Position numbers and translations under genes: made by a program
From: a virus
Lineage: Duplodnaviria; Heunggongvirae; Uroviricota; Caudoviricetes
IMG/VR virus record: IMGVR_UViG_2537562172_000009
Span: 1-32,147 of that record
Reading direction: 5' to 3' (one strand)
Length of the DNA stretch: 32,147 nt
Shown: positions 1-6,736 of the stretch, piece by piece
How the letters are laid out: the number at the start of each line of letters is the position of its first letter
How positions within the stretch are numbered: the first letter of the stretch is position 1
Notes under the pieces: model-generated
Databases searched by the model: none
The model's input: only the letters and a program-made list of their open reading frames with translations
What the model was told of the DNA's origin: nothing

Positions 1-23
1 AACACCAGCAAACAGATAAAAAA

Positions 24-45
24 GGGCCAGCCAATTGGCCAGCCC
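24..45. terminator. GC-rich dyad-symmetry hairpin, possible terminator downstream of int (read on the minus strand)
   Basis: GGGCCAGCC-AATT-GGCCAGCCC, an imperfect palindrome around a perfect GCCAATTGGC core; A-run immediately upstream on the + strand, which is a T-run after the hairpin on the - strand. About 125 nt beyond the int stop. Confidence 0.35.
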
Positions 46-171
46 TTCTTAACAGGATGTCGCTTAAGCGAAATCTTAGTTAAGACGCTCCTATTAACAC
101 CCCGCAACAAACAAACGCTTACCATATAAAACAATTAGTTAAAGTAATTTTTAATGCAATGAATTGCAGTG

Positions 172-1221
172 TTATGCAACCTCTGCCGCCATATTGTCGC
201 CAACATACAGCGATAACGGATTAAGGGTTACAGCTTGTTCAAGGTGGTCAGGAGCAAAGTGTGCATACTTCATTGTTTCTCGAATATTGGCATGCCCGAG
301 AATTTTCTGCAGTACCAGTATATTCCCGCCGTTCATCATAAAATGCGCACCAAAAGTATGACGCAAAACGTGCGTCTTCTGCCCTTCCGTCAATTCAATA
401 TTCGTTAGTTTGAGCATCTTCTTAAACTCCTGATAGCAGGGTTTAAACATTCTGCCTTGACGTACGGACAACTCGTCGTACAGCCATTTAGGAATAGGAA
501 CTGTGCGATTCTTCTTACCTTTGGTTTTGGTGAACGTCAGTTTATATGGAGAAAGTTGAGGGCGGGTCAATCTCTCCGCTTCCCCCCATCGAGCGCCGGT
601 TGCAAGGCACACCTTAACAATCATGGTGAGGTCTTCTTTGCCGTATTGCTCGCAGGCTCGAAACAGCTCCGGGAGCTGAGACAAAGTTAGCCAGGACATT
701 TCTTTCTCAGCCTCTTTGAATACTCGGATCCCATCAAGTGGATTGGGTAGGCTCCACTCCCCTAACCGGCGGAGCTCATTAAACACTGCTTCTAGGTATT
801 GTTGTTCGCGATTGACGGTTATAGGTTTGGCGATCCATTTCGAGGGGTCTTTATGATAACCGTTGTCTATTTCACCACGTAATCGACGGTCACGATAATG
901 AGCCCAGTCTTTCGCGGTAAGGCGAGATGCAATCGGGTCACCAAGCCCATTACATACGATTTGAAGCTTTGCTAACCTCGACTTACTGGCGACTAACGCT
1001 TGACCGTGCAAATTGTGCCAAAGCTGAATAATCTCGCTTAAGCGTCGGCGGTCTTCTTTCTTGCCAAGCCACGGCTTATCTTCACTCTCGCTTTTGGTAA
1101 ATGCTTCGAATGCCTCGGCCTCACCTTTGGTATTGAATTGCCGACGTATACGCCGCCCTTCTCGACCATTTGGATAGAGCTCGCATAACCATTTGCCATT
1201 TTTTTGCTTACTTACAGTCAT
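172..1221 (-). CDS. int: tyrosine-type site-specific integrase (P2/186 family)
   Basis: 349-aa ORF; ATG at 1219-1221 (minus); C-terminal catalytic region with R...HxxR...Y-type motifs (VLRHTFGAHF, KYAHF); sits at the prophage end downstream of the repressor, as in P2/186. Confidence 0.93.
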   Translation of the reverse strand: MTVSKQKNGKWLCELYPNGREGRRIRRQFNTKGEAEAFEAFTKSESEDKPWLGKKEDRRRLSEIIQLWHNLHGQALVASKSRLAKLQIVCNGLGDPIASRLTAKDWAHYRDRRLRGEIDNGYHKDPSKWIAKPITVNREQQYLEAVFNELRRLGEWSLPNPLDGIRVFKEAEKEMSWLTLSQLPELFRACEQYGKEDLTMIVKVCLATGARWGEAERLTRPQLSPYKLTFTKTKGKKNRTVPIPKWLYDELSVRQGRMFKPCYQEFKKMLKLTNIELTEGQKTHVLRHTFGAHFMMNGGNILVLQKILGHANIRETMKYAHFAPDHLEQAVTLNPLSLYVGDNMAAEVA

Positions 1222-1243
1222 AATGTCACCGAGGCAACTCTAA

Positions 1244-1582
1244 TTATTCGCAAAGTGCTGTTGCGGCATCCATTACAGGATCCAAAGGAATTTTTACACC
1301 TGCATACTCTGGACTGTCTTTCCAAACAGCATCAATATTGCTCCCCTCAAGCTTTCCAGACTTTACTCCATCAATAGCAAAACCATTTAATGGGTATCGG
1401 TCATCAGTTGCTTTGTCGTATACAAAGGCATACTTACCGTTAACGCAAGACACCGTAGCTTTTTCAAAAGTTAACGGCCAATCCTCACCAAACTTAGCGC
1501 CATCTAAATCCTGTGTTTTTTCAGCGGCTAAGGAGCCAAAAGAAAAGGTAAGAAGCATAGCTAAAAAGAGTTTACGTTTCAT
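1244..1582 (-). CDS. small secreted (periplasmic) protein of unknown function, moron inside the repressor-int operon
   Basis: ORF trimmed to the internal ATG (1580-1582) preceded by AAGGGA; the resulting 112-aa protein starts MKRKLFLAMLLTFSFGSLA-AEK, a classical Sec signal peptide with an A-x-A-like cleavage site and no lipobox Cys. Confidence 0.7.
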   Translation of the reverse strand: MKRKLFLAMLLTFSFGSLAAEKTQDLDGAKFGEDWPLTFEKATVSCVNGKYAFVYDKATDDRYPLNGFAIDGVKSGKLEGSNIDAVWKDSPEYAGVKIPLDPVMDAATALCE

Positions 1583-1590
1583 AATTTCCC

Positions 1591-2451
1591 TTATACGTGT
1601 TTTTCCAATGTGAAAACTACAACCCCGGCAGGCGTAATGTCGGTAATGTTGCATTCAAACTCAGCAGACTTATTTGACAACCTGACTTTTCCACCAGGTA
1701 AACGAATTACATCAAAAACATCAAGAGCGCCGTCGATATCAATTAACCAGCGACCATTACTTATATTCGAAGCAGAACAGTCGACAAGCCAAGAGGCAGC
1801 TACACCGTCAACAAAAATCAATTCCCCTGAGTTAGAAGGAATCATTGAGGGGTCAGGATGCCACGTTCCTGCATCCTTAAGCTCACCAGATTCAAGACGA
1901 GATTTTTTAATAGAAAAACCAGATGTGACATCTTCCCTGTTAGCTCGCATTTGCCCCTTGCCTGTTGCTAACCATTCCAGTGACGTATCGGTATCAAGAG
2001 CGCATGTAACAACAACATCACCAGGGAAAAAATCTCGCCTTACCCATGTGCTAATTGTGCCAGAGGAAATGCCGAGCAAATCACCGAGCTCCTTTTGCAT
2101 GGTAAAGCCATACGCATCAAGAATCCTACGCAAAACGGTTTTACCACCATTCGTCATAATCTCGTCATAAAGCTCTTTGCCTTTTAACTTGCAACTGGCT
2201 CGCTCGTGATTTGCATTTGCAAGCTCTCCATTTACAAGCCAATTGATATCAGCTCCCGTGTCAAGACAACACCTAACTATGACATTGCCAGGTATTGCAT
2301 CACGCTGAACCCAGCCGCTAACGCTGTGTTTAGCGATACCTAGCAGGTCAGCCAAATCCTTTTGCATCTTGACCCCATAGGCTGACATTAAGCGTTCCAA
2401 TACGCCGTTCGTTGCACTAACACGCCACTGAACATCAAGCTCAGAACTCAT
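1591..2451 (-). CDS. immunity repressor, 186 CI-like, with tandemly duplicated N-terminal HTH domain
   Basis: 286 aa. Two homologous about 65-aa segments (LERLMSAYGVKMQKDLADLLGIAKHSVSGWVQRDAIPGNVIVRCCLDTGADINWLVNGE and LRRILDAYGFTMQKELGDLLGISSGTISTWVRRDFFPGDVVVTCALDTDTSLEWLATGK) resembling the phage 186 CI-type HTH domain, followed by an about 115-aa C-terminal domain. Divergent from the Cox/Apl-like gene and upstream of int. Confidence 0.8.
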   Translation of the reverse strand: MSSELDVQWRVSATNGVLERLMSAYGVKMQKDLADLLGIAKHSVSGWVQRDAIPGNVIVRCCLDTGADINWLVNGELANANHERASCKLKGKELYDEIMTNGGKTVLRRILDAYGFTMQKELGDLLGISSGTISTWVRRDFFPGDVVVTCALDTDTSLEWLATGKGQMRANREDVTSGFSIKKSRLESGELKDAGTWHPDPSMIPSNSGELIFVDGVAASWLVDCSASNISNGRWLIDIDGALDVFDVIRLPGGKVRLSNKSAEFECNITDITPAGVVVFTLEKHV

Positions 2452-2480
2452 AAAACCCCCTACAGATAATTTTATGGGTG

Positions 2481-2509
2481 TTTACAGAAAACTTTTTACG
2501 ATCTATAGT
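2481..2509 (+). promoter_or_regulatory. candidate early lytic promoter (Pe/pR equivalent)
   Basis: TTTACA, 17-nt spacer, TATAGT on the + strand, about 60 nt upstream of the Cox/Apl-like start and inside the repressor/cox intergenic region. Confidence 0.6.
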
Positions 2510-2562
2510 GGCATTCATCGACCAAGATGCACACCACTGCACTACATTTCAAACAACAGGAG

Positions 2563-2591
2563 ATAATGCGATATGTCAGATGCAAAATCAA
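2563..2591 (-). promoter_or_regulatory. candidate lysogenic promoter (Pc/pL equivalent), face-to-face with the early promoter
   Basis: On the minus strand TTGATT, 17-nt spacer, CATTAT; predicted leftward start about 40 nt right of the predicted rightward start, giving convergent overlapping transcripts as described for the P2 and 186 switches. Confidence 0.35.
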
Positions 2592-2944
2592 TCTCGACGC
2601 ACGACTCGCAAAACTCACAAAATCAAACTGTGCTGCTAGATCCAACACAGTTTGATGCCATCGTTACCGCCATGCTGCCAGCTCTACAGACAATGATTCG
2701 CTCCGCTATGTCAGACACGATGACTGTGAAAGACTTCGCCGCTACTCGCGGTGTTAGCGAGCGTCTGGTCTGGCAATGGCTCGATGAGGGAGTCCTTCTC
2801 AAAGCTCCGACCAAAGACTTTTCCAACAAAGAGGAAGCTGCTAAACGAAGCCGAACCCTCGTAAACGTAAAAGCATGGCGCGATAAGCTGACTCAACAAG
2901 CGATTGATTGTCGCTACATCGACCAGCGCACCGCTCTTAACTGA
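2573..2944 (+). CDS. Cox/Apl-like excisionase-type HTH regulator
   Basis: 123 aa; SD CAGGAG about 10 nt upstream of the ATG; HTH-like segment MTVKDFAATRGVSERLVWQWLDEG; first rightward gene of the switch. The N-terminal 50 aa may not be translated if an internal Met is the real start. Confidence 0.65.
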   Translation: MSDAKSISTHDSQNSQNQTVLLDPTQFDAIVTAMLPALQTMIRSAMSDTMTVKDFAATRGVSERLVWQWLDEGVLLKAPTKDFSNKEEAAKRSRTLVNVKAWRDKLTQQAIDCRYIDQRTALN

Positions 2945-2976
2945 ATTTGATTATGCAAGTTAGAGGGAATTTAACC

Positions 2977-3486
2977 ATGTTTGATTTTCAGGTTTCCAAA
3001 CATCCCCACTATGACGAAGCATGCCGCATTTTCGCACAGCGTCACAACATGGCGAAGCTGGCCGAGCGTGCAGGTATGAACGTTCAAACGTTACGTAACA
3101 AGCTCAACCCGGAACAGCCTCACCAGTTCACGCCGTCTGAATTGTGGCTGCTGACTGACCTGACCGAAGACTCAACCCTCATTGATGGTTTTTTAGCGCA
3201 GATTCACTGCCTACCATGCGTGCCGGTTAATGAGTTGGCTAAAGACAAATTGCAGTCTTATGTCATGCGCGCAATGCGTGAACTCGGCGAACTGGCGAGC
3301 GGCGCGGTATCTGATGAACGTCTGACCATTGCCCGTAAGCACAACATGATTGAAAGCGTTAACTCCGGCATTCGCATGTTGTCATTGTCGGCTCTGGCGC
3401 TGCATGCACGTCTGCAGACTAATCCAGCTATGTCGAGCGTGGTCGATACCATGAGCGGTATTGGCGCATCGTTTGGCCTGATTTGA
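2977..3486 (+). CDS. cII: 186 CII-like transcriptional regulator
   Basis: ATG at 2977 preceded by AGAGGGA (8-nt spacing); 169 aa, same length as 186 CII as I recall it; HTH MAKLAERAGMNVQTLRNKL; position directly after apl/cox as in 186. The ORF-track start at 2947 is a TTG without SD. Confidence 0.7.
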   Translation: MFDFQVSKHPHYDEACRIFAQRHNMAKLAERAGMNVQTLRNKLNPEQPHQFTPSELWLLTDLTEDSTLIDGFLAQIHCLPCVPVNELAKDKLQSYVMRAMRELGELASGAVSDERLTIARKHNMIESVNSGIRMLSLSALALHARLQTNPAMSSVVDTMSGIGASFGLI

Positions 3487-3493
3487 GGTGCGT

Positions 3494-3694
3494 ATGCTGA
3501 AAAGTGAACCGTCATTCGCATCTCTGCTCGTTAAGCAAAGCCCCGGCATGCACTACGGCCACGGCTGGATCGCAGGTAAGGACGGCAAGCGCTGGCACCC
3601 GAGCCACTCGCAGGCTGATTTACTTGCTGGCCTCTCTACTCAAAAGCGGGGGGGATCATGGCTATCGAAGCTGTTTCCGCGACTGTTCCGCTAA
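3494..3694 (+). CDS. hypothetical small early protein
   Basis: 66 aa from the ATG at 3494, with GAGG about 5 nt upstream; abuts the cII stop; basic and Trp/His-rich. Occupies the slot of 186 fil, but homology cannot be asserted. Confidence 0.45.
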   Translation: MLKSEPSFASLLVKQSPGMHYGHGWIAGKDGKRWHPSHSQADLLAGLSTQKRGGSWLSKLFPRLFR

Positions 3695-3996
3695 AAGCGG
3701 GTGAACGTCTGGCCGGTCTCAATCATGTTGCCGAATTGCGCGCGAGATATTGGGGCGATAGCTGGAAAGAGGTTGAACGTTTTGTCGATGATATGCGCGA
3801 TAAACGTGACCCACAATTTGAAGAAAATAATCGGGCGCTGGCCGCTATTTTCTTTCTGGCAAAAATACCGGCGGCTCGTCATGAACTCGAATTAAGTGAG
3901 CTGACTACTGACGAGAAAAAGGCGCTTATTACAGCGATGAATCATTTTCGTGCAGTAGTGAGCTTATTTCCCAAACGGCTAACCATGCCGAATTAA
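3658..3996 (+). CDS. hypothetical early protein
   Basis: 112-aa ORF; ATG preceded by GGGGGA; overlaps the preceding ORF by 37 nt. Confidence 0.5.
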   Translation: MAIEAVSATVPLKAGERLAGLNHVAELRARYWGDSWKEVERFVDDMRDKRDPQFEENNRALAAIFFLAKIPAARHELELSELTTDEKKALITAMNHFRAVVSLFPKRLTMPN

Positions 3997-4063
3997 TCCA
4001 AACAGAAATTTAATGGCGTAAACCCGCCGGGCATCTTATTGCCCGAAATCAGGAGAGTTAATT

Positions 4064-4291
4064 ATGCGTAATACCGAAATCCGTAGTTTTAACACTGATA
4101 GCGATGCGCTGGCCGTATTGCTGACCGATGCAAAAAAAGAAGAGCGTAAAGACCGCGCGCTCGCTGTTTCCATCCGCCTTGAGGCGCTGGCTATCCATAT
4201 TACCAGAGAGGGAATGAGCGGCACCGAAGCTGCCGAACTGCTGCGCCGTGAAGCAACCCGCTTTGAGAATGAATCACAGGAGCTGCACTAA
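4064..4291 (+). CDS. hypothetical early protein
   Basis: 75-aa ORF with SD CAGGAGAG upstream of the ATG; stop overlaps the next start (TAATG). Confidence 0.5.
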   Translation: MRNTEIRSFNTDSDALAVLLTDAKKEERKDRALAVSIRLEALAIHITREGMSGTEAAELLRREATRFENESQELH

Positions 4292-4512
4292 TGGCCGACG
4301 CAATGGATTTAGCACAACTGCGCGAGCAGGAAGACCGCGAACGCCACATCAGCAACGCACGCACCCGTATCGCTGCACCTTCCCGTTTTCTTTGCGAGGA
4401 ATGTGACGCACCAATCCCGGAAGCTCGCCGCATTGCGATTCCGGGCGTGGCTTTTTGCGTAACCTGCCAGCAAATCGCAGAGCTAAAAAACAAACACTAT
4501 CGGGGGGTATAA
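4291..4512 (+). CDS. TraR/DksA-family C4 zinc-finger protein
   Basis: 73 aa with CEEC-x17-CVTC (FLCEECDAPIPEARRIAIPGVAFCVTCQ), the signature spacing of TraR/DksA-type zinc fingers; tightly packed in the early operon. Confidence 0.7.
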   Translation: MADAMDLAQLREQEDRERHISNARTRIAAPSRFLCEECDAPIPEARRIAIPGVAFCVTCQQIAELKNKHYRGV

Positions 4513-4513
4513 A

Positions 4514-6736
4514 TTGGCTGTTCAATTCGCTTATCCGTGGAACGTCCCACGGTCGGCAATCTCCAGCCCATACCTTACTTATGAGCAACAGCATCGCCGC
4601 GACCGTATGTTCGCGGCTTTGCTGCATGCAAAAAAGGTGCTTTCTCTCCAGCCCGACTGCGTGCGGTTAGATGTTTATCGCACTGCTGCGGTGCTGGAGC
4701 AAAATCAGGGTAGTCAACGAGCCAATGCATTTTTAATCAGCTTCTGCAAAAAGGCATTGCCGCGTCTTGAACTGGTCGCAAAAAAATACGAATGCGCTGG
4801 TATCAACAGCAAGGTATCAACCGCTGTTTTTGGAAGTCATTTTGATACTCAGCAAATGCAATATCTGTCGTCACGCATGGTTAATATGGTCGCCCGATAT
4901 AACCGTCTCCCGGACATGTCGCGCGCTGATGTTGACCTGTTGGCCGCTGATATTGCTAATTTCATTCGTGGTGAACTTGCCAACATTAATGACCACGGAT
5001 TCGGCGAGCTTAAAACGCTGTACACCTGGTATATTCGTGCTGGCTTTATTTCCCTCCAATTCAACGTTATCCCACCACATTGGGAGCGGGTTGAAAAAAA
5101 ATATGTCGGTGCGGATGAAATCGCACCGGCTATCGCCAAAATGTTTAACGATGGGTGGTGGCGCGGTCGTTTGCGCCGTGTAGCAGCTACGTGGCGCGAA
5201 CACCTGCAAATTGCAGTCGGCAACGTCAGTAAGAAAAAAAACACTTACGCGAGTAAAAACTGCGTGACTGACTGGCGTGAACAAAAGCGCCGCACTCGTG
5301 AATTTCTCAAAGGTCTGGATCTCGAAGACGAAGACGGCAACCGTATCAGCCTAATTGAAAAATATGATGGCTCAGTTGCTAACCCTGCGATTCGCCGCTG
5401 TGAGCTCATGACCCGCATTCGTGGGTTTGAAAACATCTGTAATGAGCTCGGTTATGTCGGTGAGTTTTACACTCTAACCGCGCCGTCAAAATATCACGCC
5501 ACGACTAAAGCCGGTTACCGTAACAGCAAATGGAGCGGTGCCAGCCCGGCTGACACGCAAAACTATCTAACCGGTATCTGGGCGCGTATCCGTGCCAAAC
5601 TACATCGGGAAGATGTCCGTATTTTCGGTATTCGTGTCGCCGAGCCCCATCACGACGGCACTCCACACTGGCACATGCTGATGTTCATGCTGCCGGAAGA
5701 TGTTGAATATGTTCGCTCCATCGTCCGTAAATACGCATGGAAAGAAGACCGCCACGAACTGAAAAGCGATAAATCCAAAAAAGCACGTTTCCACGCGGAG
5801 TCCATTGACCCGGAGAAAGGCAGCGCAACCGGCTATGTTGCTAAATACATTTCAAAAAATATCGACGGTTATGCTCTCGATGGTGAAACCGATGATGAAA
5901 GCGGTGAGCTGCTGAAAGAGACAGCCCCCGCCGTTTCAGCATGGGCTGCGCGCTGGCACATCCGTCAGTTTCAGTTTATTGGTGGTGCGCCGGTGACGGT
6001 TTACCGTGAGTTGCGTCGCCTCGCTGATACCGAAACCGCGCACGGTCTGAGCGTTGAGTTTGCCGCCGTCCATGATGCCGCCGACGCTGGTGACTGGGCT
6101 GGTTATGTTAATGCTCAGGGTGGGCCGTTTGTCCGTCGCGATGATTTACAGGTGCGCACACTGTATGAACCGCGTACCGAGCTTAATCAGTACGGTGAGG
6201 AAACGGTATGTATTAAGGGGGTCTACGATTCCTCCATAGGTGCAGGAAGCCCGATTTTAACCCGGCTCACTCAGTGGAAGATTGTTCCGAAGCGTGCTGT
6301 TGATTTGGCCGTTGACCTTCAGGACGGCAAAGCCGTCCCTCGGAGTTCTGTCAATAACTGTACGGGAAGCGAAAACGAGCCACCGGAACTTGATTTATCA
6401 AAACCGCTGAGTCGACGTGAAAAGCGAGAGCTGACAAATCGACTCAGGAAGAAAAAACCAGCGACAAGGCAAAAATTCACACACGGAAGGGATGAACAAA
6501 ACGACTCTATAGAAAGAACCATCGACGAAATACACCTGACCACTGGCGTAACGATAAGCCGGGGTGAAGCCCTGCACCTAATGGCGGGTGGCAAATGCTG
6601 CTTTGAAGGGAAATGGCTTAGAGGAACAGCCAATGGTGAGCTATTTAGAGCCGCGCAGCCTTACTCCGCCAAAGCTAAGAATATCCTTAAGCGAGTTGCA
6701 AAACTGGCAGAAACGGCAAAATTACCACGTGATTAA
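4514..6736 (+). CDS. A: replication initiation endonuclease (P2 gpA / 186 RepA family, HUH rolling-circle initiator)
   Basis: 740 aa; HUH-type metal-binding motif GTPHWHMLMF and active-site tyrosine motif ATGYVAKYISKN; follows the small early ORFs as in P2. Start as given is a TTG (4514) one codon after the upstream stop, with a G-run SD; the next in-frame ATG is 31 codons downstream. Confidence 0.88.
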   Translation: MAVQFAYPWNVPRSAISSPYLTYEQQHRRDRMFAALLHAKKVLSLQPDCVRLDVYRTAAVLEQNQGSQRANAFLISFCKKALPRLELVAKKYECAGINSKVSTAVFGSHFDTQQMQYLSSRMVNMVARYNRLPDMSRADVDLLAADIANFIRGELANINDHGFGELKTLYTWYIRAGFISLQFNVIPPHWERVEKKYVGADEIAPAIAKMFNDGWWRGRLRRVAATWREHLQIAVGNVSKKKNTYASKNCVTDWREQKRRTREFLKGLDLEDEDGNRISLIEKYDGSVANPAIRRCELMTRIRGFENICNELGYVGEFYTLTAPSKYHATTKAGYRNSKWSGASPADTQNYLTGIWARIRAKLHREDVRIFGIRVAEPHHDGTPHWHMLMFMLPEDVEYVRSIVRKYAWKEDRHELKSDKSKKARFHAESIDPEKGSATGYVAKYISKNIDGYALDGETDDESGELLKETAPAVSAWAARWHIRQFQFIGGAPVTVYRELRRLADTETAHGLSVEFAAVHDAADAGDWAGYVNAQGGPFVRRDDLQVRTLYEPRTELNQYGEETVCIKGVYDSSIGAGSPILTRLTQWKIVPKRAVDLAVDLQDGKAVPRSSVNNCTGSENEPPELDLSKPLSRREKRELTNRLRKKKPATRQKFTHGRDEQNDSIERTIDEIHLTTGVTISRGEALHLMAGGKCCFEGKWLRGTANGELFRAAQPYSAKAKNILKRVAKLAETAKLPRD

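Follow-up and report, generated by a model that had tools for sequence, protein, structure and literature searches.

The short region between a leftward repressor gene and a rightward Cox-like gene in the IMG/VR virus record IMGVR_UViG_2537562172_000009 raises the question of whether two promoters face each other there and, if they do, how they would be controlled. The convergent-promoter switch of coliphages 186 and P2 is a textbook model of transcriptional interference. A first-pass annotation of this DNA had proposed a switch of the same kind, consisting of a near-consensus rightward promoter, a possible leftward promoter overlapping the start of a Cox/Apl-like gene, and a weak inverted repeat that could supply operator half-sites. 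The window referred to throughout is the whole stretch that was analysed, positions 1 to 32,147 of that record. We find that positions 2452-2600 probably form the lysis/lysogeny switch of a 186-like temperate phage of the PSP3 type, with a convergent pair of promoters, pR and pL, and a 186-like mechanism. The predicted promoter elements are listed here with the evidence used to place them.

2481..2486, + strand: −35 hexamer of the rightward promoter pR, TTTACA (consensus scan, matrix rank)
2504..2509, + strand: −10 hexamer of pR, TATAGT, with a 17-bp spacer after the −35; predicted start near 2516
2591..2586, − strand: −35 hexamer of the leftward promoter pL, TTGATT (AATCAA on the + strand), in codons 5-7 of the Cox-like gene (186 offset, conservation)
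2568..2563, − strand: −10 hexamer of pL, CATTAT (ATAATG on the + strand); predicted start near 2556 (186 offset, conservation)

Predicted promoters between cI and the Cox-like gene

Candidate promoters were scored with a rough sigma-70 weight matrix, whose frequencies approximate those of the Hawley-McClure and Harley-Reynolds compilations and which was applied to 321,170 hexamer placements on both strands of the 32-kb window. Spacing and hexamers were compared across 102 loci (75 unique sequences). The set includes 21 loci from species-representative genomes of Enterobacter, Kosakonia, Erwinia, Brenneria and Pectobacterium that encode the 123-aa product of the Cox-like gene (identity 52-98%), together with 80 viral contigs that carry the repressor.

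Between positions 1500 and 3500, pR is the sole site returned by the consensus scan. It matches the consensus at 10/12 hexamer positions and ranks 3rd among all placements scored with the matrix, and the earlier description of TTTACA-17-TATAGT as near-consensus was correct in both sequence and position. The −35 hexamer is TTTACA, TTGCAA or TTTACC in 75/75 unique related sequences, and the −10 hexamer reads TAnAnT, behind a 17-bp spacer, in every related locus. pR (2481-2509) adjoins the start of cI (2451) and pL (2591-2563) spans the ATG of the first lytic gene; the two are predicted to be convergent, with starts (~2516 and ~2556) ~39-40 bp apart. For convergent starts in P2-like phages 40-60 bp is quoted (PMC7498355), and the predicted distance is at the lower end of these values.

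The case for pL rests on its position and on its conservation. Its hexamers lie 17 bp apart and straddle the ATG at 2573, in the Cox/Apl-like start region where TTGATT-17-CATTAT had first been noticed; they match the consensus at 8/12 positions, which is under the scan threshold, and rank 48th in the matrix search with a score of 8.2. Counted from the ATG, the −10 hexamer occupies −10 to −5 and the −35 hexamer +14 to +19, and these are the offsets of the annotated 186 pL from the apl ATG. When the two regions are anchored on their ATGs and compared without gaps over 45 nt, 27/45 positions are identical, the single best value among 64,206 offsets in the window and among 13,162 offsets in the 186 locus.

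Conservation in the related loci follows the promoter pattern closely. The pL −10 is CATTAT, CATGAT or CATCAT in 75/75 unique sequences, and the −35 is TTGATT or TTGCTT; the CATGAT variant found in Brenneria is the same as the −10 of 186 pL. The combination of TTG(A/C)TT-17-CAT(T/G/C)AT over the ATG with T(T)(T/G)(A/C)(C/A)(A/C)-17-TAnAnT is kept in 102/102 loci, and the −10 hexamers of pR and pL are 52-53 bp apart in all 102 (53 bp in the window, close to the 'about 55 bp' originally suggested as the distance between the promoters). Substitutions in the hexamers of both promoters are confined to the positions least important for sigma-70. Within pL, spacer codons 2-3 vary freely while the hexamers and the exact 17-bp spacing are fixed, and the ATG-proximal site is the top leftward candidate in 27/28 loci. 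The coding sequence itself carries a further sign of selection on DNA: in 12 diverged Cox-like genes, 31/33 of the columns with an invariant residue show synonymous variation, and the sole two exceptions are codons 4 and 5 (GCA AAA), which abut or overlap the pL −35 and lie in an N-terminal segment that is otherwise highly variable. It is therefore very likely, from these comparisons, that a DNA-level element occupies exactly the place of pL, and we identify this element with pL because it corresponds in both position and sequence to pL of 186. Taken together, the 186 offsets, the 27/45 match, the conservation across 102 loci, the behaviour of codons 4-5 and the Cox-like character of the encoded protein support the initial reading of the region as a convergent switch of the P2/186 type.

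Several observations weigh against this assignment. Sites of the grade of pL occur ~1 per 1.3 kb of duplex, so that the match taken alone is at chance level. The conserved bases round the ATG also cover the Shine-Dalgarno sequence, a TGCA/TGCG motif and early codons, and their conservation could thus partly serve translation or binding of the Cox-like protein. There is also another leftward candidate, 39 bp to the left, with almost the same score. The sampled diversity is in large part shallow, the 102 loci reducing to ~five deep lineages for the switch segment, and a search of the literature available to us found no start-mapping, footprint or reporter data for the PSP3 immunity type.

Two other accounts of the leftward signal can be built on these points. 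The first does away with a promoter at the ATG: the conserved block, which includes GGAG, the ATG, A-rich early codons and the TGCA/TGCG motif, would serve initiation of Cox-like translation or binding of the Cox-like protein or CI, the pL hexamers would be the chance-level match that they appear to be by themselves, and cI would be kept expressed from basal activity of the establishment promoter pE, which is intact and the same as in 186, or from a site deeper in the Cox-like gene. We consider this unlikely, because it leaves unexplained why hexamers and 17-bp spacing are fixed beside freely varying codons 2-3, why hexamers vary only where sigma-70 is least demanding, and why the site aligns with the annotated pL of 186. 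In 186, moreover, pE requires CII and does not maintain lysogeny, as is also summarised in the annotation of the 186 record.

The second account retains a leftward promoter and moves it. TTGAAA (2552..2547)-17-CATCTT (2529..2524) on the − strand, with a start near 2517, would be the maintenance promoter of cI, and the pR and pL starts would then be almost opposite and compete for the same DNA, with no ~40-nt overlap of transcripts. Its matrix score is 7.9 (rank 54) vs 8.2 for the ATG-proximal site, and a similar site is kept in 24/28 loci. This conservation can be accounted for by the invariant TGCA/TTCA repeats that the candidate overlaps, and the site is lost or weakened in loci L008, L012, L015 and L020, which belong to three lineages and all keep the ATG-proximal site. 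The CATCTT −10 matches the consensus at only 3/6 positions, and the candidate is without a counterpart in 186, whereas the ATG-proximal site matches 186 pL in position and sequence. We therefore regard it as quite improbable. Both accounts are less consistent with the comparative data than a pL that spans the ATG at 2573.

Candidate operators for CI and the Cox-like protein

If pR and pL form a switch, sites for the lysogenic repressor and for the first lytic protein would be expected near them. The elements that could serve in this way, or that overlap the predicted starts, are the following.

2461..2473, + strand: left copy of an immunity-type-specific repeat, TACAGATAATTTT, upstream of the pR −35; candidate CI operator
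2483..2495, + strand: right copy of the type-specific repeat, TACAGAAAACTTT, overlapping the pR −35 and spacer; candidate CI operator
2508..2537: conserved imperfect dyad GTGGCATTCATC-GACCAA-GATGCACACCAC over the predicted pR start
2528..2551, + strand: TGCA 2528, TGCA 2538 and TTCA 2548, direct repeats 10 bp apart between the predicted starts; candidate operators for the Cox-like protein
155..178, + strand: TGCA triple at 155/165/175, exactly 10 bp apart, in the int-proximal attachment (att) arm at the int stop; candidate excisionase array

The repressor itself has an unusual composition. CI carries, ahead of its CI C-terminal domain, two Phage_CI_repr helix-turn-helix (HTH) domains (aa ~14-76 and ~103-165), and is ~280-290 aa long in all 102 related loci. 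Residues 106-279, which comprise domain 2 and the C-terminal domain, align to the whole of 186 CI (E 1e-27, 32% identity); domain 1 is an additional copy that shares 50% identity with domain 2. The two copies have diverged very differently among 87 unique loci, with a mean pairwise identity of 0.61 in domain 1, which is variable, and of 0.90 in domain 2, which is nearly invariant, and the intergenic DNA of the same loci is likewise divided, with an identity of 0.54 to the left of the pR −10 and 0.87 to the right. Where two loci have a near-identical domain 2, identity in the left half is 47% if domain 1 differs and 94% if it is the same. Such co-variation of the left intergenic half with CI domain 1 is what would be expected if this half holds operators.

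Within the left half, TACAGATAATTTT and TACAGAAAACTTT match at 11/13 positions as a direct repeat (p about 0.006 in shuffles), and most other immunity types have a related pair of 12-nt elements that bracket the −35, 17-22 bp apart. Locus L015, whose CI has the same recognition helix, carries TACAGGTAATTTT at the position of the right copy. The paired elements bracketing the pR −35 are, on this comparative evidence, better candidates for operators to which CI would bind than the inverted repeat to which that role was first given. That repeat, CTACAGAT (2460-2467) and ATCTATAG (2501-2508), exists where it was reported, with arms that flank pR and are 7/8 complementary, its left arm shares bases with the left copy of the 13-nt direct repeat, and some relatives, e.g. 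L009, carry CTATAGAT, which makes it perfect. As a CI operator with half-sites for a repressor dimer it is nevertheless very improbable, since 0.85 such repeats are expected per shuffled 64-nt region and 22% of shuffles reach the observed 2, the right arm coincides with the pR −10 region, whose sequence is kept in loci with differing repressor specificity, the left arm is the most variable part within the immunity type and contains two of the three positions that vary there, and the left arm is absent from the equivalent position in L015 despite the same recognition helix. A repeat-finding scan did not report this inverted repeat.

A tentative possibility, which we hold at well below even probability, is that CI divides the reading of DNA between its two HTH domains. 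Domain 1 would read the type-specific elements and set immunity specificity, domain 2 would read DNA common to all types, for example the dyad at 2508-2537, and new immunities could arise by swapping of a cassette (domain 1 plus ~60 bp of operator DNA) with breakpoints in pR. If true, the arrangement would amount to a so far undescribed modular form of the 186 CI mechanism.

The dyad is supported by its pattern of pairing: 79% of cells are paired vs 18-52% in slid controls, four pairs have changed on both sides, so that symmetry is kept by compensation in relatives, and the observed covariation score is attained by 0/500 shuffles. It may be a DNA operator shared among immunity types or a hairpin in the leader RNA of the leftward (cI) transcript. 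If pR starts near 2516, the dyad cannot be a hairpin of the pR transcript. Among its mismatches, A/C, which would be G-U pairs in leftward RNA, number 35 vs 13 for G/T. RNA structure was rejected as the cause of the conservation of 2515-2600, the leaders folding no better than shuffles (z −0.13 and −0.43), and a search of Rfam gave no match in positions 1-6000 of the window.

Two further places were considered for CI binding and set aside. A distal operator comparable to FL and FR of 186 was sought in a copy of CTACAGACAAT at 2684; this copy is confined to the lineage of the window, the equivalent site in other type-A phages and in non-A types having CTGCAGACAAT or unrelated sequence, and the number of CTACAGACAAT motifs in the window equals the chance expectation. 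In 186, the promoter of the late activator is repressed by CI. The corresponding promoter, pB, lies outside the window, which stops within gene D, and its region is alike across immunity types (PSP3, SEN1, Midge and SW9) and thus cannot reveal a type-specific operator. At the promoter of the late activator (ogr/B homologue) in PSP3 (L029, 370-400), and in L030, L031 and L032, we observed the tandem 14-mers GCAAATCAAAACTT and GCAAATGCAAACTT, in a region near-identical among phages of different immunity types.

We turn now to the 123-aa product of the first lytic gene. Weakly but consistently, sequence profiles and a structural model point to a remote Cox-like winged-helix protein that would be the functional analogue of 186 Apl and P2 Cox. 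It matches phrog_575, 'Cox-like excisionase and repressor', with an E of 8.3e-5, and has no Pfam match at E <= 0.01. Sub-threshold matches to Pfam PF10743 (Phage_Cox) were obtained with 7/12 relatives (best E 3e-4), and one database homologue carries a precomputed PF10743 match. A search of PDB sequences with the single sequence gave no match; with a profile of the 12 relatives the sole match was P2 Cox (4lhf, E 1.6). In the AlphaFold (AF2) model the mean predicted local distance difference test score (pLDDT) is 65.5, with 70-82 in the core, and the top PDB match of this model in Foldseek is again P2 Cox 4lhf (probability 0.95, E 0.18, template-modelling score 0.34/0.50, the 0.50 being on the target, over 60 columns).

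Apl and other recombination directionality factors (RDFs) use operators made of direct repeats one helical turn apart, located at att and between pR and pL (PMC7498355). TGCA repeats of the window are found in both of these places. TGCA occurs 160 times in the window, and pairs 10-11 bp apart occur only 4 times (155, 165, 2528 and 9810), 3 of them in the switch region or the att arm; the triple at 155/165/175 is the only one in the window, with 0.03 expected. In the switch, TGCA stands at ATG−45 and ATG−35 in 75/75 unique sequences, with a 1-bp shift in one. The att-arm triple is complete in 14/20 loci in which the int stop is in range, and two of the three repeats are present in 3 more, while the flanks diverge. 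The repeats are thus candidate binding sites at both places expected of an RDF that is also a repressor, which fits a Cox-like excisionase/repressor, and the triple at 155-178 is probably an excisionase binding array.

A separate 14-nt inverted repeat (13/14 complementary, 7-nt loop) lies at 2622-2656, in the Cox-like gene and upstream of the pL −35. It was rejected as a core element of the switch: it is present in the lineage of the window and in SEN1, and partly in Midge, and is absent from PSP3, SW9, Kosakonia, Brenneria and more distant loci.

Gene layout and proposed mechanism

The genes served by the two predicted promoters, and the CII site beyond them, are arranged as follows.

172..1221, − strand: integrase, the final gene of the leftward lysogenic operon (Pfam Int_N and Phage_integrase)
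1244..1582, − strand: DUF2511 (YebY-like) secreted-protein gene of the lysogenic operon, in the cI/int interval (Pfam DUF2511, E 3.7e-17)
1591..2451, − strand: cI repressor, 286 aa (Pfam Phage_CI_repr x2, E 1.3e-52, and Phage_CI_C)
2573..2944, + strand: Cox-like gene, 123 aa, first of the early lytic operon (predicted winged-helix protein, with a ~45-aa N-terminal extension)
2977-3486, + strand: cII, 186-type, followed by further early genes
2977..3003: CII-binding half-sites ATGTTTG ... CAAACAT of pE (leftward) at the cII start, identical to the annotated 186 CII site

As judged from sequence, the window represents a 186-like prophage (genus Eganvirus) that shares its immunity type with PSP3, SEN1 and vB_EcoM-613R3 and is heteroimmune with respect to 186. 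Nucleotide searches gave identities over positions 1400-3600 of 99.9% with Escherichia phage vB_EcoM-613R3, 96% with Salmonella phage SEN1 and 89% with PSP3. The match to phage 186 (95%) is limited to the DNA from cII rightward, and the region from cI to the RDF gene is without a nucleotide match to 186 outside pL. The gene order int-DUF2511-cI / Cox-like-cII-fil agrees with that of the annotated relatives. Features that define the 186 type are present, namely a CI-type repressor (Phage_CI_repr with Phage_CI_C) and a CII/pE module at the cII start. The pE region is the same as in 186 and the DNA from cII onward is 95% identical to it, with unrelated DNA directly to the left; the identity of the CII half-sites and pE to those of 186 implies that the establishment arm of the switch is conserved.

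In the mechanism that we propose by analogy with 186, pR would direct rightward transcription of the Cox-like gene, cII and the early lytic operon, and pL would direct leftward transcription across pR into cI, the DUF2511 gene and int. With starts that face each other ~40 bp apart, the transcripts would overlap, and the stronger pR would interfere with the weaker facing pL. CI, bound to the type-specific elements bracketing the pR −35, would shut pR, which would maintain lysogeny and at the same time free the repressor's own promoter from interference. The Cox-like protein, bound to the TGCA repeats between the promoters, would repress pL and possibly pR, and on the same kind of repeat array beside int it would direct excision. 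A first burst of leftward transcription, establishing lysogeny, would come from CII-activated pE within the cII start. What the sequence comparisons establish are the elements themselves, their conservation, their counterparts in 186 and the domains of the proteins, whereas we infer the start sites, the relative promoter strengths, the interference and all protein-DNA contacts in this scheme from the analogy.

The DUF2511 gene is annotated alike in PSP3, SEN1 and Midge and is absent from 186. Its YebY-like product has a signal peptide, and the gene might be transcribed from pL and serve lysogenic conversion.

A PSP3-type switch locus is carried by about 1% of complete E. coli genomes, and that of E. 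coli P13-6 (NZ_CP080223) is 100% identical to the window in this region. Among matches to 2230-2650 in E. coli genomes, 26/68 start only at 2481-2513, which therefore places recombination breakpoints of the immunity cassette inside pR. One contig labelled Vagococcus sp., a Firmicute (L023, NZ_JBQPOM010000054.1), has an enterobacterial-type prophage switch near the Kosakonia versions, and is probably a contaminant or misassigned.

The records of PSP3, SEN1, vB_EcoM-613R3 and other relatives have no promoter or operator annotated. The promoter map presented here gives exact coordinates, from which promoter features could be added for PSP3, SEN1, Midge and similar prophages. In the literature available to us, we found no paper characterising a PSP3-type switch or a tandem-HTH CI; a comparative paper treats the Cox/Apl analogue of PsP3 as an unclassifiable singleton and describes PsP3 CI as having a 'longer C-terminal domain' (PMC3448106).

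Comparison with phages 186 and P2

Among its closest relatives the region varies little: in PSP3, SEN1 and vB_EcoM-613R3 the segment comprising cI, the intergenic DNA and the Cox-like gene is 89-99.9% identical, and the promoter hexamers are identical.

The region resembles the switch of coliphage 186, a member of the same genus, in most of its layout. In both phages cI and int are transcribed leftward, and an RDF/repressor gene, cII and fil rightward; the offsets of pL from the first lytic ATG are identical and pR lies beside the start of cI. Both have direct repeats of the RDF type, 10 bp apart, in two places, the interval between the promoters and the int-proximal att arm, in which the TGCA triple has the relative position that the five Apl sites occupy at 186 attP. 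The two phages have an identical CII/pE module, and CI is homologous over the HTH and C-terminal domains. The two switches differ in dimensions and in components. Here the −10 hexamers are 53 bp apart vs 76 bp in 186, and the predicted starts ~39-40 bp vs 62 bp (~23 bp closer); the interval between the starts has two or three TGCA sites, compared with seven Apl operators in 186. The CI of the window has an extra N-terminal HTH domain where 186 CI has a single one, linked to its C-terminal oligomerisation domain, the candidate RDF resembles Cox, not Apl, and has an N-terminal extension of ~45 aa, and the DUF2511 gene is inserted between cI and int.

With the Pe-Pc switch of coliphage P2 the region shares face-to-face promoters whose transcripts overlap, here as a prediction, and a first lytic gene for a Cox-type protein, which in P2 is a winged-helix protein that doubles as excisionase and here is a putative remote relative. 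P2 Cox is the top match in PDB for the protein of the window by both sequence and fold. The operators of P2 C are direct repeats about two helical turns apart (PMC2995052, PMC1904268), and the candidate repressor sites of the window, direct repeats ~two helical turns apart, would resemble them in this respect. Unlike P2, the window encodes a repressor of the 186 CI type, unrelated to P2 C (PMC3448106), and has the CII/pE module; the relationship to Cox is remote, the protein being without a Pfam match at E <= 0.01.

The predicted switch confirms an expected 186-like design and reveals no new one. Its unusual features, a duplicated HTH domain in CI, a shortened distance between the predicted promoters and a Cox-like candidate RDF, mark it as a natural variant of the 186 arrangement, in which the predicted promoters are two helical turns closer, a different excisionase/repressor would act on simple TGCA candidate operators, and the DNA-binding domain of CI is duplicated.

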